Shown here in pieces: positions 23,542 to 59,040 of a stretch of 64,000 nucleotides of DNA (within the stretch, counting starts at the first letter, position 1; every line of letters begins with the position of its first letter). Made by a program: the position numbers and the translations under genes. The notes under the pieces are model-generated. The model was not told the origin of the DNA and did no database searches. It saw only the letters and a list, made by a program, of their open reading frames with translations. The DNA comes from an uncultured virus (IMG/VR IMGVR_UViG_3300020048_000037). Lineage: Duplodnaviria; Heunggongvirae; Uroviricota; Caudoviricetes. The stretch lies in the IMG/VR virus record IMGVR_UViG_3300020048_000037. One strand, written 5' to 3'.

Positions 23542-23811
23542 TAAACGAATTTATTAAGAGCAAATTTAAGTTTAAATTCAAAATCTGTATCTGCTTCAAT
23601 TTCTTTTAACATCCTATAATAAAAAGAGTTGTCTAACGTATTATCATTCGGTTCACCTCCAACTAAATATAATTGATAATTTCTATTCACATAATCATCA
23701 ACATTATCATATTCATTAATATCTTTAATAGATTCTTTAATTTTGTCTATAACTTTATTTATTTCTGTGTATTTCATAATTGTAACTTTTTTATTTTTTT
23801 ATTATATAATA

Positions 23812-25175: not shown

Positions 25176-26186
25176 TTATTCATTTACTAAATATTCATTA
25201 CTAATTACTTTAAAACTAATAGATGAATCTAATGATTTAAATACTGATCCCTCCCTTTTTTCTGATGTAGTTAATAATGAATTACCTTCAGTATGTTTTA
25301 ATAATTCATCAATAGTATTAGGTAATTTATAATGATTACTAACTAAAGGTACAGTATCAGCGTTTAATACATTGTGAATTATATCTACAAATGTATCATA
25401 ATCTTCTAATCTATATTCATCTATATTAAATACTCTAAAATATTTAATTGTTTTATAATTTAGTTTATAATTATTTTTTTGTATTCCTGAACCAATCAAT
25501 TCACCTTGAATAGCTATATTTTTACCATATGCTCTCAATTTTTCTTCAATGTTATTATCAATTGCAAATTTCCAAATTAAGTTATCTGGATTTCTTTTGT
25601 ATTCCCAATTTCTACCACATACACCAAATACTCCATTATTTAAATACATAGTAGTTGATTGTCCATCTAGTTTTTCTGTTTCATAGAAACTGATGTCATC
25701 TTGTTTCCATTCTTCAAAATCATCTGATAAATTTTGAATTCTTTCTTCATCCGTCTTAGATATAAATGAAGGAATAGCACCAACAACATCTTCTTTAAGT
25801 TCATCTGGAATTGGAACTTCATATTTTTGAATATTTAATGATTCTGTTAAATCAATACCAACAGTAACATCAGACAAATCATATCCATCTAATGTTATAA
25901 TAAGTCCCTGTGAAATTTGATTTTTTAACCGAATCGTTCTCAAACGGAATCCTTCTTGTTCATCATTTTTAATATAAGAACTTTTTCTTAAAAATTCATA
26001 ATTTTCTTCTATTGGTAATAACGAATCAATTTCACAATATATAACTTTATCACCTATTTTAAATTCATCTTTTTTAACTACAACTTTCCAACCAAGAATG
26101 CTTGCTACTTCTATTCTATCTGCGCCTTTTATTGGTTGAATATCTTTAATTATTTGAACTGTTGCTAATTTTCTTTCAATATTCAT
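25176..26186 (-). CDS. ATP-dependent RNA ligase, DRB0094-type with N-terminal OB/tRNA-binding domain
   Basis: RKLA..I.GADRIE..GW, YCEIDS, SQGL, KTDEERIQN, TEKLDG, QGELIG, REG.VFK, FKVISNEYL. Confidence 0.9.
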   Translation of the reverse strand: MNIERKLATVQIIKDIQPIKGADRIEVASILGWKVVVKKDEFKIGDKVIYCEIDSLLPIEENYEFLRKSSYIKNDEQEGFRLRTIRLKNQISQGLIITLDGYDLSDVTVGIDLTESLNIQKYEVPIPDELKEDVVGAIPSFISKTDEERIQNLSDDFEEWKQDDISFYETEKLDGQSTTMYLNNGVFGVCGRNWEYKRNPDNLIWKFAIDNNIEEKLRAYGKNIAIQGELIGSGIQKNNYKLNYKTIKYFRVFNIDEYRLEDYDTFVDIIHNVLNADTVPLVSNHYKLPNTIDELLKHTEGNSLLTTSEKREGSVFKSLDSSISFKVISNEYLVNE

Positions 26187-27060: not shown

Positions 27061-27612
27061 TTATTCTTTATTTAATTCGATAAAAGATTTTAGTGTTATA
27101 ACCTTATCATAAACAGATTTTGGTACCATATTTTGTATATCTTTTGATTCTGTTAAGATAGCTTCTCTAACTTTTGTTGCAGATATACCATCTTCAACAC
27201 TACCTCTTGCTAATAGAACAAGAGACACATTAGATTTGAACATAAATCCTGGAAACCATTTTGTAATTATTTCAAATCCATCAGAATAATACATAGTAAA
27301 ACAACTACTTTTTATTTCATCTACAATTTTAGCATATAGATAAAATCCCCATTCAATTGAATTATCACTTTCAGATGATAAATCATCCAATTTAATTATC
27401 TTACATTTATCTATTAATTTTTCCTCTGTTAATGCTTCAGTTAGCATTTGCACTCTCAAGCTAATAGGAATAGGATTTCTAGAATTTACTTTATCTGCAC
27501 TACCTACCAAAAAAACTACTATTTCATTTTCAGCACACGCTTTTTTAATCAAAGCCATATGTCCATTATGTACTGGCTGAACTCTTGCTAAAATTACTCC
27601 AAATTTATTCAT
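27061..27612 (-). CDS. NadM/NadR-like NMN adenylyltransferase
   Basis: RVQPVHNGH, VGSA, RNP, ISATKVR. Confidence 0.8.
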   Translation of the reverse strand: MNKFGVILARVQPVHNGHMALIKKACAENEIVVFLVGSADKVNSRNPIPISLRVQMLTEALTEEKLIDKCKIIKLDDLSSESDNSIEWGFYLYAKIVDEIKSSCFTMYYSDGFEIITKWFPGFMFKSNVSLVLLARGSVEDGISATKVREAILTESKDIQNMVPKSVYDKVITLKSFIELNKE

Positions 27613-28824: not shown

Positions 28825-30377
28825 TTATAATTTATTTAGTTTTCTTTTTCTATATTCTTTTAGTGTTATAAAATAATTTGCATTATATCCAAGATTTTTA
28901 TATTTAAGAAAAACTAGGTTATTAGAATAATGAAAAGGACCATCATTATTATATGTAGCTAATATACAAAGATTGCCATAGAGATTGTATTTTTTCTTAT
29001 ATTTTTTATCTATGCAAATAATTATTTCTCCTTGGTTAAACACAATTTAGTTTTTTTAATTTTCTTTTTCTATATTCTTTTAATGATATAAAATTTTTAA
29101 TATTAGATGCCCAAAGTATATCATATAATAGTATATAATTTATATATACATCTGTTATAGTGTATGTATTATAAAGTTTGACATCACCACCTTCACCTGT
29201 AACATCTATACATACTACTATGTCTCCTTTTTTAAACATTATTTTATTACTTTAATTTATTGAGTTTCAATATTCTTTTTATTTTATAATATTCTTTTTT
29301 GCTATAACCTTCTACACCTATATTAACCTCAAATAAACCAATTTTTATTAACTCATCATACTCTTTTATTCTTGTTTTATAATACTCATTTTTCCTTATT
29401 TTTCTTATATTTTTTAAAAATAAAAAACACAAGAAGTTGAAAAAATAAAAAATCATCCACCATTTCATTTTTAGTGTATTATCATCATCAGAAAATCTTG
29501 TTAATTTATCTAATTTATTATTTATTATAACACCAAATATTACATAAAATCCTACTGAAAATATTACACTCTTTAAAAATTCTATCATAATGTTTTTAAT
29601 TTTAATAATTTTTCTTTTCTATAATCTTTTTTTCTTTTTTTATAAAATCTATCTGATCTAAGTGGTATTGTGCTATTATCAACAAATAAAAAACCACTCA
29701 TATCTATATATGTTATTACATAAAAATGATTTTTTGTGATGTGCTTATAGGGTGTAGAATATATACATATTACATCATCTCCTACTTTAAAATCTTGTTT
29801 GTTGTACATATATTATTAAGTTTATTGAGTTTTAATTTTCGATTATAATTAGTAAAATTTATTTCTTTATTTGATAAATAAATATTACCTTTTTCTATAT
29901 TTCCTGATAAATAAACAATACAATTATCGAACTTTCCAATAGATTTTGAAGTTTGTTTATTTTTTGATAAACTAAAATTTCTTGAATATAATAAAAAATC
30001 AATATCTTCAACACTAAAATAAATTATTGGTTCATGATTATATTTTAATTTATAAATATTGATTTCTTTTATAATTTCTTTTATAATTTCTTTATAAATA
30101 TTATTAGATGTATAAGTTGTATCTATATTAAATGTTTCAATCATAAATTATTGATTTTTTCTAATTTTCTATTTCTGATAAATTTAAGAATATTTCTTAT
30201 ATCTTTTGTATAATGTAAAGTTTTACAATCAATTAAATCTTCATCTATCCACAGTATTTCAAATATTATTAGATGATCATCTCGTTGAATGATTTTTACA
30301 AATGTAAATTTATATTGAGATTCTTTCTCACCTCCATTGAGTATATATGATATTAAATCTTCTTTTGAAATATTCAC
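28825..30377 (-). other. Array of six RKxKL-tail ORFs (28825, 29036, 29247, 29585, 29782, 30141)
   Basis: Tails YRKRKLNKL, YRKRKLKKL, KRILKLNKL, YRKEKLLKL, NRKLKLNKL, IRNRKLEKI; abutting or overlapping genes. Confidence 0.75.
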
Positions 30378-30401
30378 AATTTTGATAATTTTTAAAGTTT
30401 T

Positions 30402-30923
30402 TTATTTTTGTTTACTATTAAATAATGATTTAAACTCATTGAAATCTTCACAGAATAATAATCTTGATTTTTGTTCATCTGTTATAAAGTCTGATAGATT
30501 TTTGAATAATGAATATAACTCATTGCCAAATATATAAATATTTGGTTTAATTTTCATTTTTCTTTCTTCATCTAAAAGTAAAAAAACTTCAGATAAAGTT
30601 CCAATACCGCCTCGTTGTACAATAAATATATCACTATCAGTAACCAATTTTTTTAATCTAGAATAAATATCATCACAAGGAATAGTTTGTGTTAAATATT
30701 TATTTCCTTTTGCTGGTCCTATTGATAAGCAAGTATATCCAATTACTTCACCATTTGATTCCTTAGCACCTTTTGATACTGCTTCCATTAAACCTCTATA
30801 TCCACCACTCTTAACTATATAACCATTTTTAGCTAATAGTTCACCTATTAAAATACTATCACTATATTGCTGTGTTGTTCTATCATTAATAGCTCCACCA
30901 AAAAAAGTTGCATATTTTTTCAT
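30402..30923 (-). CDS. LOG/SLOG family nucleotide-processing protein
   Basis: SGGYRGLMEAVSKGA, R...L, GGIGTLSE. Confidence 0.85.
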   Translation of the reverse strand: MKKYATFFGGAINDRTTQQYSDSILIGELLAKNGYIVKSGGYRGLMEAVSKGAKESNGEVIGYTCLSIGPAKGNKYLTQTIPCDDIYSRLKKLVTDSDIFIVQRGGIGTLSEVFLLLDEERKMKIKPNIYIFGNELYSLFKNLSDFITDEQKSRLLFCEDFNEFKSLFNSKQK

Positions 30924-30993
30924 TTTGATTATTTTATTTATTTTAAAAGTCTCTTCTATTATTTATTGTTGATGAATAATTCATCTAAAAATT

Positions 30994-33746
30994 TTATTTT
31001 ATGATAGTTTTTAAATATGATATAATTTTTTTAAATATGTTATTATTATTTAATTTTTTTAATTTCATTTTTCTAATATCTTTTTCTGTTGGTGGTATTT
31101 TAAATGTATAATCAAAAATATCATTTTTTTGACAAATATTAACATACATATAAAGATTATCATCTATAATATATGTCTTATCTTTTTTATAATAATACAT
31201 ATCTCTTTTCATTGTTATTTTATCTCCTATTTTTACCATTTTAAAGTCTTTTTATTATTTTTAGTTTTTGTCTTCTTATTTCACTGTCAGATAATATAAA
31301 TCTTGTGTACTCATATTCATATGGTTCATCTTCTAATTTCAAATGTAACTTACCAAAAATAGGGTGTTTTTTTATTACTTTGTATGTTTTATTTAAATCT
31401 AAATGGTGTTTATAATACTTATTAACAATACATTTTACTTCATTACCTTTTTGTATTTCCATTTAATTTATTTAGTTTTAATTTTCTATATTCTTGAGTT
31501 GATATAAATCTATTTGAATCCAAATCTATATCTACATTTTCTTTTAATGTTAAACTAAGTTCACAGTAACTTTTTTTGTTTGTTAAACTAAAATCTCGAA
31601 TTCTGTATATTGTATAAATATGATAATTAATTAAAAAATTTGTTTCATCCCAATAAAGATCATCACCATAACTATATGCATAATCATCGATACAAACTAT
31701 TTTATCTCCTATTTTAAACATAGTTTATTTGTTAATTTATCTAGTTTTAATTTTCTCGCTTCTTTTAATGTGATGAAATAATCATCAAAATTATAACGTC
31801 CATCTATGCTATATTTTCTAAATGATACATCATCAACTTCAATAATATCTTCAAATCTGCGATATTTTTTGTCACAACATATTCCTGTTATTGAGTAGAT
31901 ATGAACATATTTAAATCCAAAAAAGTTATCTTCATTTAGTTTACATACAACTTTATCTCCTATATTAAACATCATTTATTTTTTTTAATTTTTGTTTTCT
32001 ATATTCAGTTAAAGATATAAAATATATTGATTCAAATGTGTATGAATGATCATTTTTAAGATAGTAATAAATTGATGTTTTATATTTAAATATATAATCT
32101 ACTATATATGATTCTCCATGTACTAATCTATTATCATATTTACCTATATAAATAACTATATCTCCAACTTTTACACTCATAATTTTGATAATTGTTGTAA
32201 TTTATATTTTCTCATATTTGGTGAGAATATTAATTTTATAATAAAATTATCATCAATATAATATAAAAATAATTTATAATCATGTGAATATATTTTGTTT
32301 ATTATATCTATATTTTTACCTAAATCTACATATAAAATATATTTATACCAAAAATATGGATTTGCTATTTCACATATAATGTTGTCTTGATTGATAATCA
32401 CAAAAAAGTTATTTTTAGTATCATAAATATCATTTATACTTAATTCTTCTATTGTAATATCCACCATTTTTAAATTATCATTAATATCACATATAAAATA
32501 TATTGGAAAATTCTTACAACTAAGATTATTTATTCTAAATAAACTTTCACTCCATATTTTGTTTGATTCACGAAATTCAATCATAAGATATTCTTTACTG
32601 TAAATTGTATCTTTATGTTTCTTATACTCAATAGTATTAAATTTTATAATATTATTCAATTTTTAATTTTTTTAGTTTTATTTTCAGCTCAAGTTGATGA
32701 ATTAATTTATTGGTTTCTATTATTATTTGATTTGTGCTTGAAGTAGATTTATAATATGAAATATATTGTATTTTATAATTATAGTACTTCAATTTAAAAT
32801 TATCATATTTTATATAATTATATAATATTATAAAGATAGTAAAAAATATATAAACTATCTTATTTTTATCTACCTCATCTTCTAAAAAAGTAATAAAAAA
32901 ACCATTATCAAATTTTTTCTTTTTATTTTTATATATCAAATATGATGATACATTTAATATAAAATAAATAACAATAGAGAAAAATGTAATATCTATTATA
33001 TTAATCATATATTTAATTTTTTCAATTTTTTCAATTTAATTTTTAACTCACATTGATATAATTTTCTTCTAATTTCATCTTCACCTATTATATTTAAATT
33101 ATAATCTACTGAGTTTGATATGATTTGTAAATAAGGATCATTTTTAGCATTTTCGATTTTTTCAACCTTATATTTTAAATATCCATATTCAAACTCATCT
33201 TTATGATAACTATTGTATATAAATATAAAATGAGTAAAAAATAAGTATAATACAGGATGTTTATTTATATGCTCTTTATAAAAATAAGTCTTATAATCAT
33301 ATGTGAGTTTTTTAACTTCATTTTTAAAAACTATAATATTACTTATATAATATATAAGTGTAGATATTGATATTATTCCAATAATTATTAATGTATTATT
33401 CATATTAATTTTTTTTAATTTTTTCAAGTTTATTTTTTCGTTCTTGTTTTTTTATATATTTTTTCAATTTAACTATCACTTTAGAATTTGGATCCATATA
33501 AGATTCTTTTAATTTATTTTTTGAATATGTTAGTTTAAATTTATCATCTGTTTTATTGATAAATAATACATAAATAGGATAATATAATATACATGGGAAA
33601 CTATAATTCATTTTAACATAATAATTAAAATCATGATATATTCTATTATACCTTTTTTTTAAGTATATACTAGCGCATACACAAAATATTACATATATTT
33701 CAAATATAAATAATATAGATAATATAATTATATAAAAATTGGTCAT
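30994..33746 (-). other. Array of nine RKxKL-tail ORFs (30994, 31241, 31443, 31709, 31965, 32177, 32652, 33005, 33405); the last three have TM segments
   Basis: All end in (R/L)K-x-KL-x-(K/Q/I)-(L/I); several start M-(F/V)-(K/N)-(I/V)GD-x-(I/V). Confidence 0.75.
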
Positions 33747-39699: not shown

Positions 39700-39921
39700 A
39701 TGTTCAAAGTAGGAGAAAAAATATATTGTATAGATGATAGATTTAAACAAGAATTAGGAGATTTTGTTATTGTAGATAGAACTGATTATAGAGCAGAATA
39801 TCCAAACAATCAAATGATAAGTTTAATTGGCCATCATTCTATGTATAATACATTAATTTTTATTTCACTTAAAGAATATCGTAAACTTAAACTTAAGAAA
39901 ATAATAGAATGTTCAAAATAG
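39700..39921 (+). CDS. RKxKL-tail family small protein
   Basis: MFKVGEKIYC...FISLKEYRKLKLKKI. Confidence 0.8.
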   Translation: MFKVGEKIYCIDDRFKQELGDFVIVDRTDYRAEYPNNQMISLIGHHSMYNTLIFISLKEYRKLKLKKIIECSK

Positions 39922-40127
39922 GAGATAAAGTTGTTTGTGTTTCAGGAATTAAAACAAATAAAGGAAATTTAGAAAATTATAAAGAATATATAATCTCTTA
40001 TATTTCTGATGATTCTTTTCAGAGTTGTTTAAAAGTAGAAGGAATAGAATTTGGATTTTTAAACTCAAGATTTATCACACTTAAAGAATATCGTAAAAAT
40101 AAGCTTAATAATCTACTTAAAAAATAG
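39909..40127 (+). CDS. RKxKL-tail family small protein
   Basis: MFKIGDKVVC...FITLKEYRKNKLNNL. Confidence 0.8.
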   Translation: MFKIGDKVVCVSGIKTNKGNLENYKEYIISYISDDSFQSCLKVEGIEFGFLNSRFITLKEYRKNKLNNLLKK

Positions 40128-40579: not shown

Positions 40580-40658
40580 AAAAAAGAGAATCTTTAGATT
40601 CTCTTTTTTTTTGTGTAAAAAAAACTCTATTCCAATTAATTGGAATAGAGTTTTTTTT
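40580..40658. terminator. Two tandem terminator hairpins between convergent operons
   Basis: AAGAGAATCT/AGATTCTCTT and AAACTCTATTCCAA/TTGGAATAGAGTTT with A/T tracts. Confidence 0.75.
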
Positions 40659-40680: not shown

Positions 40681-43140
40681 TTATTCTTCTTCTGGTTTTT
40701 CAGGAGTAATATTAGCCATCAACCCTCTGATAGTTGTTTCTAAATTTGTACCTTTAACTGAATCTAATAAACCTTCAATACCGCCCTTCTTAAAGATGTC
40801 AGTCCAGTTACCACCTTGTTCTTTAATATTTTTAGCAAGAATTTCAGTAGTTCTAACTCCACCAAGAGTTATCATCGCTTCAATTAACTTAGGTTGAATA
40901 GCATTCATTTGAGATTTATATTCTTCTATACGAATATCAGATTTTTCTTTTGATACAAAGATTTCTTGCTTATCATTAAGTTTCTGGATTTCAAGTAACA
41001 TTTTATTTATATCATCTAAAACTATTTGTCTTTTTTTCTTAGCTTCAACTGTTGCTAATTCAATAATATTTGTATCATCAAGTTTTTTCTTATTGATATC
41101 ATAACGAGTTTTATCAGTTTTATAATTTTCTTCAAGAATTTGACGTTTTATAGTTTCTTCCTCTTTAGTGAGTTCTAAATCTTTCTTTATTTTATTAATA
41201 TTCATATTTTGTTTTACAACATCTTTCTGAAAATCTTTTAAATAATATGAAATTTCACTATCACCAATAGTAATATTCAAAACTTCAATATCATATACCT
41301 GCATACCATTTTCTTCAAATGTTTTTCCTGGTCTTTTCTTACCTTCATCAGCAACACCTAAAACTGTATCACGAAGAATATCTGCAGCGTCATTATTAAA
41401 TTCTTCAATGTTAACTTTTTTAACCTTATTACGAATAATTGAACGAAGATGTTGAGTTAATAATTTAACGTAATTACTTACATTAAACCATTTTTTATCA
41501 TCACCAGTAAAATTAACTCTATAAGATAATCTAATTGAAACATTAACTAAATCTTTTGTTTCAGCTTCAATTATATCTGATACAATATTATTTTTAGTCT
41601 GTAAATACGCAGTTTTAAATAATGTGTGGTCTGTTTTAGGTTTACCTGTTGATAATTCTAATACTTCAAGAGTTTCATCAAACTCAAGTAGTTTTACTTT
41701 TGGTCCAATAACTACTTCACGATCACCAGTTTTCTTAACTACTTGAATTGCATATCCTGGCCAAACATTAATTGTAACAGCACCATCATATTTATTGTCC
41801 ATTGTTAATGTTCTTGGTTTTGTGAAAGTACTTTTTCTACTCATCTCATCAGCCATGTTCATAGACGATGCATAAGCTTTAGAACCTTTAGATAAACTCC
41901 GATCAGAAACATATGCATTAGTTCTACCTCCAAATTCATTCATATCACTATTACTGATTTCTGATTCCATTGATCTATTGTAAGCCAATGCATCAACACT
42001 AGAAGGGAACCACAATTTTACTGATGCTTCATCTAATACCCGTTTAACAATAACTTCTTTTCTTGGATCTGGGTTAAACATCTTTGGTCCTTTATATAAA
42101 GTAATTTCACCAGTATTTTTATTAAGTACATAACGAGCCTCACCGCCAGTTATTGCTACTGCATAATGCATAACTCTATCATCATATTTAATGATAGCGT
42201 GTTCTTCTCTAGGAAAATAAATTTTTTGTTCTTTTCCTGTGATAAACAATTCTTCTCCTGTTAAGTATTTTTTGTTGTTTTCTTCATAGTCAGCAATAAC
42301 TTTAATATAGATACCCATATTATCATTTAATTCAACTGCTTTAAATTTCTTTTTACCTTCTTGTTCAAGAAATTCTTCTGTTGGTTTTGGAAATACTACA
42401 TCTGGTCCTTTCACGTAACGCTTTGCACCATTTTGATCTAAAAGAATACAATATTCTAATCTTTCTAATGTCACTGCTTTACGAACAAAGTTGTTTTGTT
42501 CATCTGATACAACTTCAATACCAGTAGGAGGAATATAAAAAGACACATCAGTTCCTTTAATTACAAATAATTTACCTGTTACTAAATCTTCAGGTGAAAT
42601 TAATGTTAATTTTTTAATTTTCTTTTCTTTTTCCTTATCTTCTGTTGCACCTGCAGCACTCTTAACAATAGAATTACTAATATTCTTTTTAGCTTCATCT
42701 TCATTATAAACTCTTACAATAAGATATTCATTATACTTTAAATTATGTCCATGTAACACTTTGCCAATTTGTTGAGGCCAAAGAGGAAATGTTATAGGAC
42801 CAGGTATATTAACTTTACTACCAAAACTCAATGGTGTCATATTTGAATTTTTACCTTTAGTTGGATGTAAAGGTTCATTATCTTTAGGAGATGCTGGATT
42901 GTTTAATACAATATATTCACCTTCATCTGCTGATAGTAAGTTTTGAATGGCTAAATTTGAATCTTCTACAGACATAAACTTCTTTGTCTTTTCATCAAAT
43001 ATAACCACTCTATCAATCTCACCAATACTCTCTTTGTATGGACCAACTGCTACAGCAACTGTTCCAGATGCACCATCTTGTATATATACAAATGTGCCTT
43101 GGGGTAACACTAAGTCACTCCTTTTGTTTTCATAACCCAT
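40681..43140 (-). CDS. Major vault protein (MVP) homologue
   Basis: Repeated G-P beta modules (VAVGP, IPGP, VKGP, YKGP, VIGP), GEELFITG, LELSTGKPK, shoulder/SPFH-like segment DII.AETKD..LSY..F..LRS.IR..EEF..FEENGM.V..IEV, C-terminal coiled coil. Confidence 0.85.
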   Translation of the reverse strand: MGYENKRSDLVLPQGTFVYIQDGASGTVAVAVGPYKESIGEIDRVVIFDEKTKKFMSVEDSNLAIQNLLSADEGEYIVLNNPASPKDNEPLHPTKGKNSNMTPLSFGSKVNIPGPITFPLWPQQIGKVLHGHNLKYNEYLIVRVYNEDEAKKNISNSIVKSAAGATEDKEKEKKIKKLTLISPEDLVTGKLFVIKGTDVSFYIPPTGIEVVSDEQNNFVRKAVTLERLEYCILLDQNGAKRYVKGPDVVFPKPTEEFLEQEGKKKFKAVELNDNMGIYIKVIADYEENNKKYLTGEELFITGKEQKIYFPREEHAIIKYDDRVMHYAVAITGGEARYVLNKNTGEITLYKGPKMFNPDPRKEVIVKRVLDEASVKLWFPSSVDALAYNRSMESEISNSDMNEFGGRTNAYVSDRSLSKGSKAYASSMNMADEMSRKSTFTKPRTLTMDNKYDGAVTINVWPGYAIQVVKKTGDREVVIGPKVKLLEFDETLEVLELSTGKPKTDHTLFKTAYLQTKNNIVSDIIEAETKDLVNVSIRLSYRVNFTGDDKKWFNVSNYVKLLTQHLRSIIRNKVKKVNIEEFNNDAADILRDTVLGVADEGKKRPGKTFEENGMQVYDIEVLNITIGDSEISYYLKDFQKDVVKQNMNINKIKKDLELTKEEETIKRQILEENYKTDKTRYDINKKKLDDTNIIELATVEAKKKRQIVLDDINKMLLEIQKLNDKQEIFVSKEKSDIRIEEYKSQMNAIQPKLIEAMITLGGVRTTEILAKNIKEQGGNWTDIFKKGGIEGLLDSVKGTNLETTIRGLMANITPEKPEEE

Positions 43141-43850
43141 AAATCACTTTTTTTAATTATTTAATTATTAATACTTGAAAATTATATAAAAACTATTATT
43201 ATAAATAGTTTCTGTTTTGTTTTTGTTTTATTTTCTTATTATTTGATTTTCATCAATTTCTTCTATAAATCTATCTGGTAGTGTAGTTTCACAACTAGTT
43301 ATAAATAATTTGTTTTCAGAAAATTCTCCTACTATCCAACCTGAACCAGGTACATTTATCCAATAATATCCATCATTTCTCATCCGACACACTTCTCATA
43401 ATTGATATTGTTTTGTGTTGTTTCAATGTAAAATCTAAACTATTTGTTCTATACCAGTTTAAATTAGTTTCTACAATAGGAATATGTTTACATTTTTGTA
43501 ATATTTTATATGGATTTACTAAATTATTTTTCATCCATTCAATTACTTCTGATAACTCTTTTGGAATATAATAATAATACCAACCTTCTGCACATATTTG
43601 AGATATTATACCATATTTCTCATAAATTTCTTCAAAAGCACACATATCTGTTTCCCACATATAATCATTAAACCAATAACTTTGTGATTTATTTGTCAAA
43701 TGTTCAATAAATTCCCATTTGAATTTATTATATTGTTTAGCTCTTTCCCAATGCTGTTTTTTTACAACTGGATCATCTTTATATTTATAATTACGATTCA
43801 GATTCTTATCTGCATAATAACATATCTTTATTATATAATAATCTTTACAT

Positions 43851-44204: not shown

Positions 44205-46389
44205 TTATAATTTTCTTAATTGTTTTAACTTTTGCTTTCTATAATTTTTTAATGATATAAAATGTTTTTCATAATAACTATTATTATCATAACCATGAAT
44301 TTTAATCATAAATTCACCATTATATTTGTAATTTAGATATCCATTGAATATACAAATTTGTTGATAATTTATGGTATAATAATCATATGGTGAATCTGAT
44401 TCAAATATACAAATTATTTGTTCTCCTGGTTTAAACATAAATTATTTATAATGTTCTTTAAATCTCTCTCTATCTTCTTTCGATAATCCTGTACCAACCC
44501 AATCCAATATTCCTAATTCTTTATCTATTTCCCATTGTCTTTCACCTGATAATTTAAAATAATTACCTGGTCTTTCAAAAGATTTTTCAAACATATCTCT
44601 TTCTGTCATATTGATTTTTTTATTTTTATTAATTTATTTTTTCTCTCTTCAGATAAAGATATAAAATCCTCAGCGGGGTGAAATCCAGTATGATATAATA
44701 ATTCAACATAATAATTTTCAAATATATGTCCTCTATAATTTCTATTAGATATATTTTCAATAATATATATTTCACCACGTTTAAATCGAATATCATCACC
44801 TCCGTATCTAACTTTTGAACCGATTCTATACATTTATTGTTAGTTTTTTAAGTTTTTCTTTTCTTGCTTCTTTTATGTTTAAATTTCTAAGATTGTGTGA
44901 TTCATATGTATTTGTACGTCCTACTATAGTATTTAATATACATCTAGTTCTAATATATGAATAATATCTCTCTTCAAAAATACATATAATAGTGTATGTG
45001 TCTGTTGTGTAGTACCATTCATCAGATAATTTGTCTGAGAATTTAACTTTATCTCCTATATTAAACATTTGATATTTTTTCTAATTTCTTTTTTCTTATT
45101 ATTATTTTTGCTTCTTTATAATAGTTATCGGTTAGTTCATAAAGCAGAAACCCAATTTGTGTATAATATCCATTATTTTTTAATTTATTGTGTGTTACAT
45201 AAATCTCATATGCAATATCATCTAATAGACTTGATTTAATGTCATTTTTGTGTATCATTGTTTATTCTTTTCAATTTCTTTTTTCTTAAATAAGATTCAA
45301 TTATTTTCAAATCATTATTATCAAAGAATAAATCAGGATTATCAAATATTTGTTTATAACCTTTAATTTCATTATCTAATAATAATATTGTTAGTGCATT
45401 ATTTTTATTTTCATCTTCTACAGAGCTACAATAATGTAAAAATTCAATATGTTTTTTCATTAATATATCATATTGTTCTTTCAATATTTCATATTTATCT
45501 AATTCAACACCAGCAATAATTTCAATGTGTTTACATCTATTTTTCATTGATTTTAGTTAATTTTTTTGATCTTATGTATTGTTCAATGTCTTTCATATTC
45601 AATTTATCAAGCATATCAATAGACGGATTTGATACTTTTTTTTGTAATTTCTTAATTAGACATCTTAGTGAGTTATTAGTAGTCTGTGTTGATTTTAATT
45701 CTGCTGATATTTGATTATATCTATTACTTAAAATAGTACATGACTTGACTAAATTATCATAATCTATCATAGATACACGAAGAGTTGAAGATTTTTTCAT
45801 TTATTTAACACATTTAATTTCTCTTTACGAATAAATTTATTATATTCATTGTGAAATTCATTTTTTAATACTTTAGTTGAATTAGATAATATATCATTAA
45901 TTTTTTTATTTTTTTTATTTTCATCTAATTTTTTAAAATGATTTCTTAAAATAGAAACATATTTAGATATTTTTTTATCTTTAATAAAAATAATATTACA
46001 ATATTTTGAAATTAATATACTTTCATATGATGAATGCAATACTAATTCATTTTTTTTAGTATCAATAATAAATTGTGCATTATCACCATAATCCTTGCTT
46101 TTATATATTTCATGTCCTAAACATGTGTCTATTTTCCAATTGTATATGTCGTTATCAACAGAAATAAAAAACAGCGCAATTAGTTCTAAAATTTTTGGAT
46201 TTGCGTTTTTCATTTTGTATTTAATTTTATTAATTTACGCTTACGTAGATAATTCTCTATGAATTTAATATCAATTCCATCTAAAATTATAGTGTTCAAT
46301 CTATCAACATTTGATTGATTGTTATTTTTTAATATTTCTAACCTTTTATCGTAAGTCATATCAATAGTATTTTTTGTTGAGTATTTCAT
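44205..46389 (-). other. Array of eight RKxKL-tail ORFs (44205, 44606, 44826, 45061, 45242, 45537, 45797, plus an untracked 59-aa ORF 46210-46389)
   Basis: Tails YRKQKLKQL, ERKNKLIKI, ARKEKLKKL, IRKKKLEKI, LRKKKLKRI, IRSKKLTKI, IRKEKLNVL, LRKRKLIKL. Confidence 0.75.
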
Positions 46390-46391
46390 AA

Positions 46392-46871
46392 TTATTTTAT
46401 GTTTTTGCTTTTCTTAATCAAATCGTACGCGGAATTCAATTTTATGAAATTTCTATTTGCAATTGCTTGATTTTCTTTAGTATCAGTTGCAAATTTATCT
46501 GGATGCCATTTCATAGACAATTCTCTATATTTCTTTTTTATAGTAGATTCATCATCTTTTTTATCAAGCTTCATTAATGTATATGCGTTATCAAGAGCTG
46601 TGCTTTTACTTGGTTGATTAAAGTTGTGGTTGTTGAATTTTTGACGTTCACTTCTACTATAAGAACTATATGCACTATACTGATCGCCATTAGATGACTT
46701 CATATTTTTAAGAAGTTCATCAATATAATCATACATTATATCTTCATATATGTAATCAAACTCAAATTGTGAATACTTACGACCATTAAAGTGTTTATTT
46801 GCACTTTCTTGTCGTTTTTTTTCTTCTTCCATACGTTCCTGTTCTTTACGTTTATTATTAAAAAATCCCAT
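46392..46871 (-). CDS. J-domain (DnaJ-like) co-chaperone
   Basis: AY.LM..IKKKYRELSMKWHPDK..F.KLN.AY. Confidence 0.85.
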   Translation of the reverse strand: MGFFNNKRKEQERMEEEKKRQESANKHFNGRKYSQFEFDYIYEDIMYDYIDELLKNMKSSNGDQYSAYSSYSRSERQKFNNHNFNQPSKSTALDNAYTLMKLDKKDDESTIKKKYRELSMKWHPDKFATDTKENQAIANRNFIKLNSAYDLIKKSKNIK

Positions 46872-48381: not shown

Positions 48382-50494
48382 TTATAAGTTAAATTTATTT
48401 GTTGCTATCATCAGATCAACATCATTTCTACTTATGATGTTAAATTGTTCACTTAGTTTAAATGATATAAGATATTGTCTATATTCATTGATTTCTTGTA
48501 TTGTATTTGATGTGAGAGCAAGAAGAAACCTTAAATGGTTTGGTGTAAAAACATCACTATTATAACAAAAAATAAAAATATTAAATTCTTTTCTTGTTTC
48601 ATTATAATATATATCATAATCTGATTGGTTTTCATTTAATGTTTGTATATCATTAGACAATATTGTTAAATCAACATATTTTTTAAAATATGTAAAGAAA
48701 TGATGTATACTATCATTATATTGTTTATATGTTTTCATAAGTTAAATTTATTTAAGTTTGATATATATGGAACTTCTTCTTTTGTTATATTTTTCCATGG
48801 ATAATTTGTGATTTTAATACTTCTTCTAATTTCAGATAAAGATGAATCAATATATATTTGTGTCATTTGCATAGCATATTTAAATTTGTGCTTTTCAACA
48901 AATAACATATTAGTTCCAGATTTTATATATGCATATATAATAAATATATTATTATTATTTTCAGTTAGATTATAAATATCATATTCTATATTATTTTCAT
49001 CTAATAAATTTGCGTTACTAATTATTTCATCACTATATCCATTGAATCTAATTGTATATATTAAATTAATTTCTTTTTTACTTTCATTGTATTGATTATA
49101 TGTTTTCACAAGTTAAATTTGTTTGTAATTTCTTTATATTTAGCAAATTTTTCAGCATCAATTTTTTTCTTAAAACAATGTTCAATATCACTTAATATAA
49201 TATATGTTCTATAATAATTTTCATTTTCTGTTATTACTGCAATAAAATGTATTTTTATATCATCTGGTACATTATCATATCTAACACTAACATATCTGTT
49301 AGTACATTCAATTATTTCACCTACATTATTATTTATAAATCTACAAAACTCTTTTCTAAGATATTGATAGTCATTTTCATTCGCATTTGTTAAAATATAA
49401 TATCCTTTATCATAACCATATAATTTCTCATTCTCAGTTAATTCTTCATTAAATATTTTTATTATCATATTATAAATTAAATTTTTCTGCTGATAACATC
49501 AATTCTAAATCTTTCTTATTTTTACTACAATATTTTATTTCATCTAATGAAAAAAGAAATCCATCATCAGTTCCAACCGCTATGAAATCTTTTAATGAAT
49601 CTAATTTTGCATCATCAAAATCAAAACTTACTATATATGGATAGTTTGCAGAAAAATTAGTATTAATGTCAATTATTTGTCCTATTTCACCATAACTATC
49701 GTTAGTTACTGGACTCAAATCTTGACAAATAACATAATCTCCAATAGTTGGATTATGATCATTCAGTTCATATAATTTAAATTTTGTTATCATATTATAT
49801 GTTAAATTTATTTGCATTTATTATAGTAAAAACATCTTCATATGTTATTGGTGGTGTTTTTTTAATAAATTCTTCAACAGTCTTTCTTGTTGCATCATAA
49901 TTAAATATATTATAATCATCTGGAATATTATCAATAGTAAAATATCCAGGTAATAAAGTAAATATGGAAAATTTAACAGTTGGTAATTGATTATTAAAAA
50001 TATAATAATCAATGTGTGATTTATCTAATATATCTAAATCTCCTTTCATTTCAGATATATTATTATCATTATATTTTTTATAATAAACATATTCACGTTG
50101 TGTATTTTCATTAAATCTTTCTATCTTCATATTATAAGTTAAATTTATTTGTTGATAATTCTAATTCTAAGTCTAATTTATCTTCAGACCAATGTTTTAT
50201 ATCATTATAATTAAAATATATTATACATTTATGCTTACTTTCAGAATATTTTTTCATTATGAACTCAGTTGCATTATTATATTCAACAACAACAGTAATA
50301 TCATCAAAATTTTCTTCATTATCATTAGGATATTCTATCTCAATAATCTTTCCTATATTAGTATCAAAAAATTCATTTGAAACAATCTCATTATCTAAAT
50401 AATAACCAGGAGTACCTAAATGACAAATCACATAACATCCAACATCAAATCCTCCTAAATCCAACTCTTCAAACATTTTAAATTTTGTTATCAT
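48382..50494 (-). other. Array of six KFNL-family ORFs (48382, 48735, 49106, 49470-49793, 49795, 50132)
   Basis: Starts MKTYKQYND, MKTYNQYNE, MIIKIFNE, MITKFKLYE, MKIERFNE, MITKFKMFE; all end KFN(L/I). Confidence 0.8.
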
Positions 50495-54037: not shown

Positions 54038-54425
54038 CTAACCTTGAGTTAAAATATATTGTTTAATGGTGTTTGGATTTGCTTCTCCAATAGAACAAAC
54101 AAAATAACCATCTGACCAAAATGTTTTTTCTACCCANNNNNNNNNNGTCATATATGATATGTGCTTTCTTGTTTTAATTTCCTTACTATTAAAGTAATAG
54201 ATAACTAGGACTATATCTAATAAGAAAATGAATATGATCTATATCAGATTCCATAACTTCTATTTCAAAATCACTTTTAGAAGCAATGTTTAGTAATAAT
54301 TGCTTCATATCATCTTTTAACTGACCAACAAGTAATTTCTTTCTGTATTTACATACAAAGATTAAATGATATTTTAAATAATGTTTTGAACGAATTGTTG
54401 AATTGTGTTTTGAATTTTTAGACAT
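54038..54425 (-). pseudogene. tnpA: IS200-type HUH transposase with frameshift, premature TGA and gap
   Basis: YHLIFVCKYRK, DHIHFL; shifted frame continues LSIT.IVRKLKQESTYHI*; distal FWSDGYFVCSIG..IKQYI..QG. Confidence 0.8.
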
Positions 54426-54529
54426 AACTTTTAATTTTTTTGTGAATGTTTCTCAAAATGAATGGAAACATTTACAAAAAAATTAAAAAAATGTAAAAAA
54501 TGACTTTTAAAGTTTAATATATACATTAT

Positions 54530-55711
54530 ATGAAAACAATATTTAAGTCATTTAAGTTTAGAATATATCCAAATAAAGAACAAGAAATCTTGTTTGCTAA
54601 ACACTTTGGTGCTTGTAGATTTGTTTTTAATCATTATTTAAACAAAAGAAAAGAAAGTTATCTTGGTGAAGACAAGAAATCACTAAATTACTATGATAAT
54701 GCTAATGATTTAACACAATTTAAGAAAGATGAAAAATATAATTGGTTGAAAGAAATTAATAGTCAATCACTCCAATCATCTTTAAGAAACCTTGATACTG
54801 CTTATGGTAAATTTTTTAGAAAACAAACTAAATTTCCAAGATTTAAATCAAAATATGATAACCAATCATTTAATATACCACAATTCGTTAAATTAGAAAA
54901 TAATGAATTAATAATTCCTAAATTCAAAGGTGGAATTAAAATTAATTTACACAGAGAAATTAATGGTGAAATATTGTTTGCTACTATATCTAAATCAACA
55001 ACATGTAAATACTATGTCTCCATCACATGTGAAGTAAATCATAAACCTTTTGATAAAACTGGTAGTGAAGTAGGTATAGATACAGGTATCAAGGATTTAG
55101 CTATATTAAGTGATGGAACGACATATGAAAATATAAGAAGTTTAAAGATTAAATTAAAGAAGTTAAAATATAATCAAAGACAATTATCTAAAAAAACAAA
55201 AGGTGGTTCGTCAAGAAATAAACAAAAACAAAAACTTGCTATTGTTCATGAAAAAATAACTAATGTTAGAAAAGATTATTTACATAAAGTTTCAACCGAA
55301 ATTGTCAAAAACCACGATATTATATCAGTTGAAGATTTAGCGGTAAAAAATATAATGAAAAATCATTGTTTAGCACAAGCAATGTCTGATGTTAGTTTAG
55401 GTACATTCTATTCTATGTTGGAATACAAATGTGAATGGAATGATAAACAATTTGTTAAAATTGGTAGATTTTTTCCTTCATCTAAAATGTGTTCTAATTG
55501 TGGATGGATAAATCAAGATTTAACCTTGAATATTAGAGAATGGACTTGTACTTCATGTGGAGAAAAACATGACAGAGATTTTAATGCAAGTAAAAACATT
55601 TTAAAACAGGGTTTAAAAATATTGTCTGGTTCAGGGATTGAGTCGGACATTAAACAAAAACAGATGGAGGCGTTGCCGTTAGGTGAGTCTATGAAACCTG
55701 AAACACATTAG
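54530..55711 (+). CDS. tnpB: TnpB RNA-guided endonuclease
   Basis: FKFRIYP..FGACRFVFN HTH, GIDTG, VEDL, PSSKMCSNCG, WTCTSCG..HDRDFNA. Confidence 0.95.
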   Translation: MKTIFKSFKFRIYPNKEQEILFAKHFGACRFVFNHYLNKRKESYLGEDKKSLNYYDNANDLTQFKKDEKYNWLKEINSQSLQSSLRNLDTAYGKFFRKQTKFPRFKSKYDNQSFNIPQFVKLENNELIIPKFKGGIKINLHREINGEILFATISKSTTCKYYVSITCEVNHKPFDKTGSEVGIDTGIKDLAILSDGTTYENIRSLKIKLKKLKYNQRQLSKKTKGGSSRNKQKQKLAIVHEKITNVRKDYLHKVSTEIVKNHDIISVEDLAVKNIMKNHCLAQAMSDVSLGTFYSMLEYKCEWNDKQFVKIGRFFPSSKMCSNCGWINQDLTLNIREWTCTSCGEKHDRDFNASKNILKQGLKILSGSGIESDIKQKQMEALPLGESMKPETH

Positions 55712-55770: not shown

Positions 55771-55801
55771 AAAAAAAGAAGCAAAAATATTGCTTCTTTT
55801 T
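55771..55801. terminator. Bidirectional terminator
   Basis: AAAAAGAAGCAA..TTGCTTCTTTTT. Confidence 0.7.
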
Positions 55802-56301
55802 CATATATTATATTTTGATGTTGCTATAAAAAGTGGTAAATCATGATTTATTTGCTCATATATTATTTTAAACTCATCAATTATATCACCTAATGTTTTA
55901 GATTTTATTATTATTTGTTCTAGTATAGGATAATATTTTTTTATTAATTCATCATATGCTTTGTCTGGAATTTTTTCTATTATAGTTTTTTTATTACTAA
56001 TAAAATCATTGATATTTGAACTACGATATTTCATTCTATTGCTATGAAATTTAGTATCAAAAGACAACATAGAAAAATCTTTTTCTTCATTAGTAATACT
56101 AATATTTCTTAATTCAATATCATCTAAATATTTTGAATGATCACGTATTTCTTCAGCTAATCCCCAAATAGGTGAACACGCTCTATAATGTGAATTGAAT
56201 GTCATAATATTATTTTTATTATTTATTGTAATATTAAATTTAGAATTCTTATATAGTACGACATCTTCATTTTTTTTATCAAAAGTTTTTAGATATTTCA
56301 T
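55801..56301 (-). CDS. MK..FE/KFNL family protein
   Basis: MKYLKTFD...TSKYNI; TAATATATAC upstream. Confidence 0.75.
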   Translation of the reverse strand: MKYLKTFDKKNEDVVLYKNSKFNITINNKNNIMTFNSHYRACSPIWGLAEEIRDHSKYLDDIELRNISITNEEKDFSMLSFDTKFHSNRMKYRSSNINDFISNKKTIIEKIPDKAYDELIKKYYPILEQIIIKSKTLGDIIDEFKIIYEQINHDLPLFIATSKYNI

Positions 56302-56596
56302 AGTGGTATATATTAATATTAGATGTTGGTTTCTTTTGCAGTTACATATAATACAAATTCTCCTATTGATGTTGTTACTCTATAGACAAGTTGCCCGTTA
56401 TTTATTACTGATAAAATATCAAGATATTCATCTATTTTATCTGATTCTGAGCTATTTAATGTTTTTAGTTCAAAATATGCATTTTCTTTTGTTATTTGTC
56501 TTAAATCTAAAATTTTAACTTCCATAAATTGTATTATTGTTAAAAATACCATCTATATATTTAAAAATAAATGGTAATACGCTGATTTATTTATTG

Positions 56597-56980
56597 TTAT
56601 ATATTAAATTTTTCAGATTGTTTTTTTATTAAATATTCATTATATTTATCTTTATGAGATTTTAGTAAATTGTAATATTTTTCTTTATAATCTGAATTAT
56701 AATAATTAAGATAATCTATAAAATCTTCATCCTCATTATCTTTTATATACCAATCTGCATCATTATCTATAAGTTTTTTAAATATTTCATATTTATTAAA
56801 CATTACACACATCATTAACGGAGTAATACCGTTGCTATCTACATAATTTATATCTACACCAAGTTCTATAAAATATAATGCATTTTCTATTTCATTATTT
56901 TCTATAGACATAATCAAATCTATTCCAGTATAATCAAAGTCCTTTCTTAATTTAGTTTCATATGTTTTAATATATTTCAT
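56597..56980 (-). CDS. Ankyrin-repeat protein carrying MK..YE leader and KFNI tail
   Basis: GVDINYVDSNGITPLMM..EIFKKLID.DAD; MKYIKTYE...SEKFNI. Confidence 0.8.
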   Translation of the reverse strand: MKYIKTYETKLRKDFDYTGIDLIMSIENNEIENALYFIELGVDINYVDSNGITPLMMCVMFNKYEIFKKLIDNDADWYIKDNEDEDFIDYLNYYNSDYKEKYYNLLKSHKDKYNEYLIKKQSEKFNI

Positions 56981-57321
56981 AAGTTGAATTTTTTAATATC
57001 ATTTTCTATCGCAATTTCTATATCTGTAGCAAATCTCAAATCATAAGGATGACACTCAAATACAGATACTATACCATCATATATATTAGCAAAATTTGTT
57101 AATGATTTTGGAAGATTATAATATTTTACTTCAACCCAACCAACCCATGCATTACGTACTACTCCTATGCGATTGTTGAAAAAATGATAAAACTCATCTA
57201 ATTTACTTTCTGGTATATTGTTCCTGATTATTAAATTGTGAATGTCTTTAAACACAACTAAATCATTCACATGATATTTTTGAATATCATGTATTCCTTC
57301 AAATATCTTTAAGTATTTCAT
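56977..57321 (-). CDS. MK..FE/KFNL family small protein
   Basis: MKYLKIFE...IKKFNL. Confidence 0.8.
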   Translation of the reverse strand: MKYLKIFEGIHDIQKYHVNDLVVFKDIHNLIIRNNIPESKLDEFYHFFNNRIGVVRNAWVGWVEVKYYNLPKSLTNFANIYDGIVSVFECHPYDLRFATDIEIAIENDIKKFNL

Positions 57322-57611
57322 AAATTGAATTTTTCTGATTTTTTTCTTAATTCATAATCCTCAATTGAATTATCAGTTGTAAAAATTGAGCCAGCATACT
57401 CACATTCTTTTTCATTATTATATAAAATGCTAGTAACTGTATTAGTATCAAATTTTCCGTTATCGTCTTTTATTCTTTTTCCTACACTTGAATAATAAAT
57501 TTTATATTTTTTACCACTTGTATATTTCCAATAATAATCTTTATGAGGTTCTTTAACACACAATAAACCTTGGTTTACGTTATTATCTTCAAATGTTTTT
57601 ATATATTTCAT
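57318..57611 (-). CDS. MK..FE/KFNL family small protein
   Basis: MKYIKTFE...SEKFNL. Confidence 0.8.
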   Translation of the reverse strand: MKYIKTFEDNNVNQGLLCVKEPHKDYYWKYTSGKKYKIYYSSVGKRIKDDNGKFDTNTVTSILYNNEKECEYAGSIFTTDNSIEDYELRKKSEKFNL

Positions 57612-58021
57612 ATATTAAATTTTTTCATATCATATTTCATATTTACAAAATCTTTAACTCCATCAATACCAACTTCTTCTACTTCTTCTTTTGTAATAAG
57701 ATTATGATTAAATCCAATTTTATCATTTATTAATTTTGCATAATTAAAATCAATTAAAATCTTTTGTGTATTTTCATTTTGTAATGAAGATATTAGGTGA
57801 TAATTATATGAATCATAAAAAGGCGCAATACCTTGTTTAAGAAAATATATTAACACATCATCATCATCAATTGCTTTTTCAAATATATCATTATTATCAG
57901 CTTTATATCCTTTTTTAACAAAAAAATCTATAGCACTAATATCACAAGTATCTATAGCTTTTAATAGAAGCAATTCTTTAACTTCTTTTACATCATTATA
58001 TTTTTCAAATAGTTTTATCAT
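57608..58021 (-). CDS. KFNL family protein with degenerate ankyrin-like repeats
   Basis: MIKLFE..LLKAI..AIDFFVKKG..KAI..YFLKQG...MKKFNI. Confidence 0.6.
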   Translation of the reverse strand: MIKLFEKYNDVKEVKELLLLKAIDTCDISAIDFFVKKGYKADNNDIFEKAIDDDDVLIYFLKQGIAPFYDSYNYHLISSLQNENTQKILIDFNYAKLINDKIGFNHNLITKEEVEEVGIDGVKDFVNMKYDMKKFNI

Positions 58022-58074
58022 AAATTAATCTTTTATTATTTTATATATATAAAAAAATAAATATAATTTTTAAT

Positions 58075-59040
58075 ATGTACGACTTAATATTATCAATGAT
58101 AAAAGCAAATGAAGATTATGAAAATGAACTGAATTTCACAAAATCAGATATTGTAAATTTTATGAAAAAATACAATTTCAAAAGTGAAATCGAAGAATGT
58201 AATGAGATTGGTTGGATAATCTTATTGAGAAATAAATATATTACAAATGAAGAATTTGCAAAATTAATGGATGTTGAATATAAAGAAGATAAATTTTGGT
58301 TAGTTATAGACTCATTTGATAATATATTATCAGACAAATATGAAACTGAAATTAAAATTTTAAATCAAAATGATGATAATGAATGGTGGGATGTTTGTAA
58401 TTATTATGAAGTTTCTGATATAGAATCTTATTATTGGAGTATATACACAGAAGATACATTGAAAAATATAATAAAATATTGTATAGATAATGGTATTGAG
58501 ATAGAAAATGAAGATGGTAAAGATGAATTGATGACAGATGAAAATACATATCTGAAACAAGACAAAAAAGGAATTAATGATATTTATTTTAAATATGAAA
58601 ATGGAGAAGAAGTTAATTTGTCATCATTACTTGATGATGACGAATTCGAGGAATTGAAAACAATTTTAAATAGTTCAATTTGTGAGGCACAAGATGATGC
58701 AGATAAATCAGAGATTTATAATGATATAATGAAAGAATTTGAAAGTTCCATTGGTGTTATTAAAAGAGATACAATAAAGCAAATTAATTATAAAGGAGAA
58801 GAGCACGACATTGATAAAATTTATATAAATTTAGATAAACTTAAACTTTCTGATGTTGAATCTTTTCTACAAGATGATTATGAAGAATATGATTTTGAAT
58901 CAAAAAACTATGGAAGTTTAATTCACATATTAAAAGAAATGGAATATTTTGAATTTAGAACACCTGATTATAATAATGTTTATGGTAGTATTGATAATGA
59001 TATTTTGAATGAATATACACTAGATAGATTAAATGAATAA
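58075..59040 (+). CDS. Highly acidic hypothetical protein
   Basis: 321-aa ORF, D/E-rich throughout. Confidence 0.65.
   Translation: MYDLILSMIKANEDYENELNFTKSDIVNFMKKYNFKSEIEECNEIGWIILLRNKYITNEEFAKLMDVEYKEDKFWLVIDSFDNILSDKYETEIKILNQNDDNEWWDVCNYYEVSDIESYYWSIYTEDTLKNIIKYCIDNGIEIENEDGKDELMTDENTYLKQDKKGINDIYFKYENGEEVNLSSLLDDDEFEELKTILNSSICEAQDDADKSEIYNDIMKEFESSIGVIKRDTIKQINYKGEEHDIDKIYINLDKLKLSDVESFLQDDYEEYDFESKNYGSLIHILKEMEYFEFRTPDYNNVYGSIDNDILNEYTLDRLNE

Follow-up and report, generated by a model that had tools for sequence, protein, structure and literature searches.

A shortened major vault protein homologue encoded in the AT-rich DNA of an uncultured large phage

The window, i.e. the whole 64,000-nucleotide stretch of IMG/VR record IMGVR_UViG_3300020048_000037 (Caudoviricetes) that was analysed, has a GC content of ~22% and carries short ORFs that are mostly without annotation. 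Its minus strand holds an ORF of 819 aa with an ATG start and no run of N inside, preceded by an AT-rich spacer and followed by two hairpins. The gene, its parts and its flanks are as follows.

40681..43140, minus strand: gene of a major vault protein (MVP) homologue with seven repeats, 819 aa (Pfam, PDB matches, structure model)
42025..43116, minus strand: N-terminal part with six beta repeats of the MVP type, residues ~9-372 (profile-profile alignment, structure comparison)
41800..42024, minus strand: pair of helices with a linker that is variable, of low confidence and carries an invariant Arg435, residues 373-447 (model, family alignment)
41650..41799, minus strand: seventh repeat, equivalent of eukaryotic R9, residues 448-497 (Pfam Vault_3, profile alignment)
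41611..41652, minus strand: keyhole loop, residues 497-510, with nearly invariant Pro501 and Lys502 (family alignment)
41260..41592, minus strand: SPFH-like shoulder domain, residues 517-627 (Pfam MVP_shoulder, E 5e-28)
40864..41259, minus strand: cap helix, residues 628-759 (model, PDB alignment)
40684..40863, minus strand: C-terminal short helices of low confidence, residues 760-819, without the eukaryotic cap-end motif (model, motif scan)
40617..40658, no strand assigned: inverted repeat, perfect over 21 bp, that forms a terminator-like hairpin on either strand (repeat scan, folding)
40580..40609, no strand assigned: second terminator-like hairpin with 14-bp arms (repeat scan, folding)
43141..43227, minus strand: AT-rich upstream spacer without Shine-Dalgarno core (similar ~45 bases in the closest relatives)

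An initial annotation made from the letters alone had read the 819-aa ORF, with its motif LELSTGKPK (residues 494-502), as a full-length MVP homologue, and profile searches agreed with the homology and with the proposed order of domains. PF11978 (MVP_shoulder) matched residues 517-627 with 97.9 bits against a cut-off of 25, and PF17795 (Vault_3) matched residues 456-507 with E 3.2e-9, also over its cut-off; these profile matches are MVP-specific, and Band_7 passed its cut-off on the same ORF as well (E 1.9e-6). All six PDB sequences matched were major vault proteins, with E down to 1e-37 when a profile was used, and the profile of the phage protein aligned to rat MVP 458-829. Searches of NCBIfam and PHROGs with the protein matched no family, and human MVP is ~22% identical to it. 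It is virtually certain that the ORF is a true MVP homologue. The term “full-length” holds for the order of domains and fails for the number of repeats, as two of the nine eukaryotic ones are absent.

The AlphaFold model built from 115 diverse homologues (pLDDT 82.4, pTM 0.61), which superseded an earlier one from 96 close homologues (pLDDT 68.6), has beta repeats to residue ~500, then the SPFH shoulder and then a single helix over residues 628-748, in concordance with the repeats, shoulder and long C-terminal helix that had been proposed. The best ten rows of VIA-align were vault chains with Z 20-25, the human vault being best with Z 24, whereas other SPFH proteins reached Z 12.4 at most; rows 1-15 of Foldseek were all MVP chains. 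Model residues 9-632 lie on human MVP 112-652 with rmsd 4.0 across 472 residues, residues 9-676 superpose on human 112-695, and the murine R1-R7 crystal, with seven repeats, spans model residues 7-516 (Z 13.9; Foldseek E 5e-15).

When profiles were aligned, two cyanobacterial MVPs of eukaryote-like type matched the phage protein over 651 columns (probability 99.5); this paired R2 and R6-R9 and placed a deletion of about two repeats within R3-R5, the human repeat numbering being reached via the cyanobacterial-human MVP alignment. Phage repeats 2-6 correspond in turn to R2, to one of R3-R5 (here enlarged by an insertion of ~45 residues) and to R6, R7 and R8; phage repeat 1 is placed as R1 solely from its position and a match below significance. 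Since about two of R3-R5 are deleted, the phage MVP carries seven repeats, not nine, which sets it between the five of Asgard archaea and the nine of animals. The eukaryotic vault (human 9BW5 and 9MXJ; rat 4V60 and 4HL8) shares with it the order of repeats, shoulder and cap helix, the fold (Z 20-25) and the Gly-x-Pro-Lys of the keyhole loop, but has nine repeats, a longer cap helix (157 residues from anchor to anchor in human MVP against 123 in the phage protein, i.e. 34 more) and a cap-end motif. The latter, ITDG, seen in human and cyanobacterial MVP, occurs in 0/115 family members. The most conserved part of the protein in the family alignment is the repeat region 201-360. No transmembrane segment was found in the MVP, where the top 19-residue hydropathy is 0.93 (a value of 1.8 is reached by 1/115 homologues), and its N terminus consists of beta repeats, without the N-terminal membrane anchor of membrane-anchored SPFH (band 7) proteins. 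Fused longer forms numbered zero among 3365 candidates of 1435-4095 aa, which speaks weakly against them, and the N-terminal extensions of two relatives had no Pfam match.

The two hairpins, recognised from the start as twin terminators, lie 3' of the MVP stop, between the gene and a converging gene block. On the MVP strand they folded with z -9.8 (40617-40658) and -6.8 (40580-40609); 0/200 shuffles folded as well as either of them on either strand, and U runs occur on both strands. The pair probably terminates transcripts from both sides. Upstream, the ~45 bases preceding the ATG are similar across the closest relatives, and this spacer may contain a promoter of the MVP gene's own; a promoter scan gave 15 sites versus 22 in shuffles.

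The first 220 kb of a 222-kb IMG/VR contig (G001) are matched by 91/154 window ORFs, mostly in the same order, and its part at 151-214 kb is largely colinear with window positions 343-50130, with MVP between the same flanks. The window is therefore not cellular or chimeric, and the phage origin originally proposed stands. The same MVP context was present in six IMG/VR contigs, with MVPs 79-81% identical. CheckV completeness of G001 is 31%, which would imply a genome of about 700 kb. Contigs from four DNA runs show the region, as short fragments, in aquatic metagenomes. Phage identity follows from the baseplate and tail-fibre-like proteins and UvsW encoded by contigs of close relatives, from a 1061-aa marker protein of G001 that matches 31 phage records, and from the Gp23 capsid gene, present in 2/2 GenBank carriers of MVP tested. 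The best match of the marker is a 735-kb phage (40%), followed by 634-642-kb phages, PAU and Lak, so that sequence kinship places the window in the Lak/PAU-related megaphage lineage. Capsid and terminase families (PF07068, PF03237) were found in 0/5 closest contigs, these being 15-70% complete, and the capsid fragment of the 735-kb phage gave, as query, one weak match (E 1e-4) among the five. Hosts named in marker-matching records are Prevotella (15), Tenacibaculum (5), Chryseobacterium (2), Sphingomonas (2) and Flavobacterium (1), and a Shine-Dalgarno core precedes 0/133 ATG ORFs of the window (~3 expected); together these point to a Bacteroidota host as the likely one.

The MVP family proved to be large. 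Homologues numbered 3578 among 8000 scored candidates. Of clusters built at 50% identity, 806 scored E <= 1e-30, a count that may take in more distant MVPs. Pattern scans confirmed MVP in 218/227 viral (IMG/VR) and 349/359 genome-contig stretches, from which 79 of the 218 and 80 of the 349 loci, respectively, were examined. There are at least 218 viral MVP matches, among them phages of about 460-735 kb; 18/79 viral contigs were of 200 kb or more, and the 18 near-complete carriers sampled were all of 134-482 kb, in a sample biased by the choice of long contigs. Among 50,697 GenBank phage records three had MVP, with sizes of 462 and 735 kb, and the same three are the only carriers among the 31 records sharing the lineage marker. 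As only 3/31 marker-sharing phages have it, MVP is an accessory gene in phages. It is under purifying selection, with dN/dS of 0.155-0.191 versus four relatives.

A FastTree phylogeny was calculated for 146 rows, of which 115 were loci (139 full-length ORFs dereplicated at 90%) and 31 were added; its supports are SH-like, its backbone is poorly resolved and its sampling covers the nearest matches only. The phage MVP fell into a clade of 23 rows with support 100, comprising 20 viral rows and three MAG contigs; in two of these three, genes beside MVP recur at phage loci, and both are probably misbinned. A 135-row clade (support 100) unites the phage protein with MVPs of the Saprospira/Microscilla type and is separate from eukaryote-like MVPs. 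Within the tree, the main bacterial set is a single 53-row clade (support 99) amid many deep viral lineages, and the first branches are four myxobacterial rows. Such a topology fits a bacterial origin, then long residence in phages and then returns to bacteria. The MVPs of ~820 aa from Saprospira, Microscilla, Plesiocystis and other bacteria are 41-48% identical to the phage protein over residues 1-772 or more and share with it the invariant residues and a strongly supported family, but the main bacterial set forms its own clade, whereas the phage protein belongs to a viral one.

Phage MVPs as such have been in print since 2023, contrary to the novelty implied by the initial annotation. As far as its accessible text goes, the preprint of Santos et al. 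(bioRxiv 10.1101/2023.11.10.566534) describes two gut-phage MVPs of ~811 aa, from Caudoviricetes ctOa11 and ct2Ri15 (DAN98122.1, DAT09870.1), ~23% identical to human MVP, placed near bacterial homologues and left without an assigned function; TEP1/vPARP partners were sought there and none found. By the description of that paper these proteins are akin to ours in being phage-encoded, in their length of ~810 aa and in grouping with bacterial MVPs, and they were not among the matches in the 50,697 records. Two genomes were reported there, as against at least 218 viral matches here; the size of the family, its deep diversification among phages, its accessory status, its breadth in large phages, the seven-repeat layout and the viral clade are additions to the published picture. 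Bacterial MVP homologues were described by Daly et al. (PMC3762200) and Sokolskyi (bioRxiv 10.1101/872010), according to the available parts of both. Likewise, the accessible portions of PMC12962969 report Asgard MVPs with five repeats, a ~10-mer model and predicted cups or barrels, those of bioRxiv 10.1101/2024.11.05.622173 and PMC9605863 report vault and TROVE proteins of Borgs, and multimer models of both Borg and Asgard MVPs gave partial barrels or cups (10.1101/2024.11.05.622173, PMC12962969). Set beside the phage MVP by these descriptions, they are similarly non-eukaryotic with predicted assemblies, the Borg one also on a giant mobile element, but differ in their archaeal hosts and, for Asgard, in five repeats. 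Among the top-listed matches in the full-text literature, with subscription papers mostly outside it, neither images of a vault from a prokaryote or phage nor an account of MVP across megaphages appeared; the same holds for 10 supplementary files that accompany PMC7162821, the huge-phage paper, and bioRxiv supplements may name further carriers. PMC13346979, considered as an MVP paper, was discarded, “MVP” being a database there.

According to the available text of PMC12280208, NAD+ and ADP bind to the human vault where two shoulders meet, with affinities of tens of micromolar, and ADP-ribose is present at that site in brain vaults (10.64898/2026.05.01.722283). In the human vault this NAD+/ADP-ribose pocket is lined by the keyhole loop. 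We compared the 13 human pocket residues named in the accessible part of PMC12280208 with the phage protein: two are kept (K506 and H509), two are changed conservatively (R504 to K and D521 to N), eight (R507, P508, R511, L517, F522, W545, P565 and K573) are lost and R437 is unplaced, having two candidate positions, with Arg435, invariant in 115/115, in the same linker. K506 corresponds to Lys502 and P505 to Pro501, each kept in 113/115; R504 corresponds to Lys500, where Lys or Arg occurs in 48/61 viral and 10/54 genome rows, with Lys prevailing in phages and Thr in bacteria; D521 corresponds to Asn518, invariant in 115/115. H509 is kept in the phage protein, not across the family. With most NAD-pocket residues changed and no constant counterparts of PARP4, TEP1 or vault RNA, the phage MVP differs here from the eukaryotic vault. 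The keyhole loop is conserved; binding of NAD there may be taken as a lead, and a nucleotide ligand as possible rather than probable.

No neighbour of MVP is conserved: the immediate neighbours at 109 loci fell into 103 clusters upstream and 101 downstream. Distances were assessed in 39 long carrier records of our own choice, 18 of them near complete, whose genomes are related and not independent; split matches were merged, and nine sub-cut-off RNA-ligase matches, one weak TROVE and one weak nucleotidyltransferase piece were excluded. Within 10.5 kb of MVP we found NAPRTase/NAMPT in 6/18 (1.6 expected), NADAR in 4/17 (1.4 expected; also 4/17 within 5 kb, 0.7 expected), TROVE in 3/5 (0.6 expected), RNA ligase in 8/32 (2.9 expected) and tRNA nucleotidyltransferase in 0/15 (1.4 expected). 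Locus L083 has the order NadE-NadD-NUDIX-MVP-NADAR-NAPRTase, with L031 similar, L053 has NUDIX-NAMPT-NADAR-MVP and L026 has NADAR-MVP, from annotation that covered 145/195 candidate neighbours. A fair reading is that the accessory regions with which MVP travels abound in genes of NAD salvage and RNA repair and that the proximity to NAD genes is not specific, RNA ligase being near MVP as often. Accessory control families also cluster together, as with MVP. In the window, the nearest NAD genes are NadD at 14176-14793 (26 kb away) and a NadM-like gene at 27061-27612 (13 kb), and no PARP or TROVE gene was detected there. PARP was present in 7/39 and TROVE in 5/39 carrier records, many of these being fragments. 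A WGR-PARP lies two genes upstream of MVP at L055; PARP was rejected as an obligate partner because 15/16 records matching one phage PARP are without MVP. TROVE was considered as a partner too; it lies within 6 kb of MVP in five loci that are close kin and in one additional record, and no Y RNA was found. One other lineage has MVP near TROVE, tRNAs and GOLLD RNA. Ordinary SPFH genes occur in 9/39 MVP phage records, with a flotillin two genes upstream in one lineage.

We propose, at a probability of roughly 0.5, that the protein is a soluble subunit of a self-assembling, shortened vault-like cage that would aid host takeover or counter-defence during infection. The gene would be an old accessory of very large phages, here of an AT-rich megaphage probably infecting Bacteroidota, and soluble MVP would be made inside the infected cell. 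Its subunits would pack laterally via cap helices and shoulders; lateral assembly of eukaryotic MVP is driven by the cap helix, as stated in the accessible text of 10.1101/2023.11.10.566534, and by analogy assembly of the phage MVP into a ring or dome is likely. The eukaryotic vault is a barrel of 2 x 39 subunits; that of the phage, whose subunit lacks two repeats and 34 residues of the cap helix, would probably be shorter than the vault of animals, and the lack of the cap-end motif in 115/115 leaves it uncertain whether a barrel would be closed. The cage would serve takeover or counter-defence rather than virion building, sheltering or buffering something that the host attacks in infection; adenine nucleotides (NAD+, ADP-ribose) at the shoulder keyhole loop would be its likeliest content, or else RNA and translation components. 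A bolder form of this proposal, which we consider doubtful, is that the seven-repeat vault is a phage counter-defence organelle whose pockets bind NAD+, ADP-ribose or derived immune signals and so blunt NAD-depleting defences, in a family that diversified within phages and returned more than once to bacterial genomes; given such repeated re-entry from phages, the main MVP clade of gliding bacteria may be phage-derived.

The function of vaults has been sought since 1986, and one phage gene, kept under selection across many large phages, makes for a simple system in which to study it; the present copy, one of hundreds, comes from a phage which is, like its host, uncultured. NAD+ and ADP-ribose have been placed in the human vault shoulder (PMC12280208, as its available part states; 10.64898/2026.05.01.722283), and recent work has an NADase related to antiphage effectors sitting inside the vault; with these two, the phage copy, whose pocket is partly kept, would be a direct test of whether vaults take part in NAD-based immunity. 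In addition, a vault of reduced size able to fold in bacteria could serve as a useful nanocage.

Instead of a soluble cage, the protein could form half a vault, left open, or a dome of the SPFH type, docked on the inner membrane; a membrane protein of the host (a protease such as FtsH, or an effector of defence) would be enclosed in it, in the manner of HflK/C, flotillin and prohibitin. The shoulder and helix of the phage protein resemble prohibitin, erlin, HflK/C and flotillin with Z 10-12, the cap-end motif is missing, SPFH genes accompany MVP in the phage records given above, and 14/999 Dictyostelium vaults were on membranes via the shoulder, as reported in the accessible text of PMC13100048. 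We nevertheless regard such a dome as unlikely, since the protein has no transmembrane or hydrophobic anchor, its strongest conservation is in the soluble repeat region and Band 7 genes other than MVP do not lie near it significantly more often than expected (2/10 within 10.5 kb versus 0.8); the membrane-associated cage suggested at first loses ground on the same absence of a transmembrane segment. The cargo then suggested, the window's own tailed proteins or non-coding RNAs, fares worse and is quite improbable. RKxKL and KFNL tails do end 27 and 24 of the 154 window ORFs and 80 and 72 of 413 in a close relative, and the lineage with TROVE and GOLLD RNA fits packaged RNA, but two or more tailed ORFs occur in only 10 of the 80 viral loci with MVP, every one of them closely related to this phage, and where a phage MVP is 73% identical, the tails are on 10 and 3 of the 756 ORFs of that phage. 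Furthermore, Rfam found one tRNA and no other family in the window, and no Y RNA or vault RNA in 12 loci scanned.

A virion part or genome-shielding shell would suit a fold of shell-forming type and the large genomes of all 18 near-complete carriers in the biased sample, yet MVP occurs in so few of the 31 related phage records, lies among small accessory ORFs outside the structural block without a PHROG match and is carried by many bacterial chromosomes too. A vault of ~65 nm would, moreover, be too small for a genome of hundreds of kb, so that this role is highly improbable, and the soluble cage is preferred to it. Recent capture of a host gene without phage role, or an assembly chimera, is largely refuted. 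The GC content of the gene (29.5% versus ~22% around it) and eight N runs in the scaffold might have hinted at either; those runs all lie outside the gene, its GC3 of 0.14 is inside the range of the window, the flanking genes are the same in six IMG/VR contigs, the 23-row clade is almost wholly viral and dN/dS remains below 0.2.

In one phage lineage (loci L015, L016, L019, L022, L032 and L036), a TROVE gene and many tRNAs are found no further than 6 kb from the major vault protein (MVP) gene, and in a relative, L014, a GOLLD RNA (L014:3579-4063) is located 1.5 kb upstream of MVP. The association of MVP with TROVE and tRNAs or GOLLD RNA echoes that of MVP with TEP1 and vault RNA, in this single phage lineage only. 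Runs of NAD-salvage genes enclose MVP in a few phage lineages (L083 and L031, L053, L055), with a WGR-PARP gene two genes away from MVP in L055. L083, together with L080 and L081 (JAFGOA010000025.1), was assigned to MAGs, either archaeal or without name; these contigs probably represent misbinned phage DNA: their neighbouring genes and MVP clade are common with phage loci. Such contigs could falsely raise the tallies of archaeal MVPs.

The window itself encodes four proteins possibly related to NAD:

14176-14793, NadD (above the TIGR00482 cut-off)
23743-24303, GP30.3-like protein
27061-27612, NadM-like adenylyltransferase
30402-30923, SLOG protein

Their order is retained in G001 (locus L163), the largely colinear megaphage contig, and they may constitute an NAD-salvage kit.

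The basic RKxKLxKL-like C-terminal tail, raised in the initial annotation as a possible vault cargo mark, showed no link to MVP. It was found in 27 of the 154 window ORFs (80/413 in G001), which are short and for the most part mutually unrelated, and may serve them as a common signal for targeting or degradation. A K[FY]N[LIV] C-terminal end occurs in 24 window ORFs (72/413 in G001), many with an N-terminal MKYIKTFE-like leader; this is a second putative tag family with paired N- and C-terminal tags.

28825-33746, 39700-40127 and 44205-46389, examples of RKxKLxKL-like-tailed ORFs
6588-8455, 48382-50494 and 55801-62650, K[FY]N[LIV]-ending ORFs

G001, the closest megaphage relative, also carries a Cas3 gene (L163:7580-9874), followed by a 650-aa ORF with no Pfam match; the locus is a possible phage-encoded type I CRISPR system.

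Other genes and elements of the window were as follows:

1684-2409, tRNA nucleotidyltransferase head domain gene
6102-6497, MgtC gene
18703-18788, tRNA called as Phe by ARAGORN, with anticodon AAA
19764-20483, metallophosphoesterase gene
25176-26186, RNA ligase gene, DRB0094 type
46392-46871, DnaJ-domain gene
54192-55711, IS200/IS605 element

In the IS200/IS605 element, both a TnpB (Cas12f-like) gene and a gap of Ns adjoin a fragment of a Y1 transposase. The anticodon of the tRNA is unusual, and its span overlaps the ORF call at 18414-18773.
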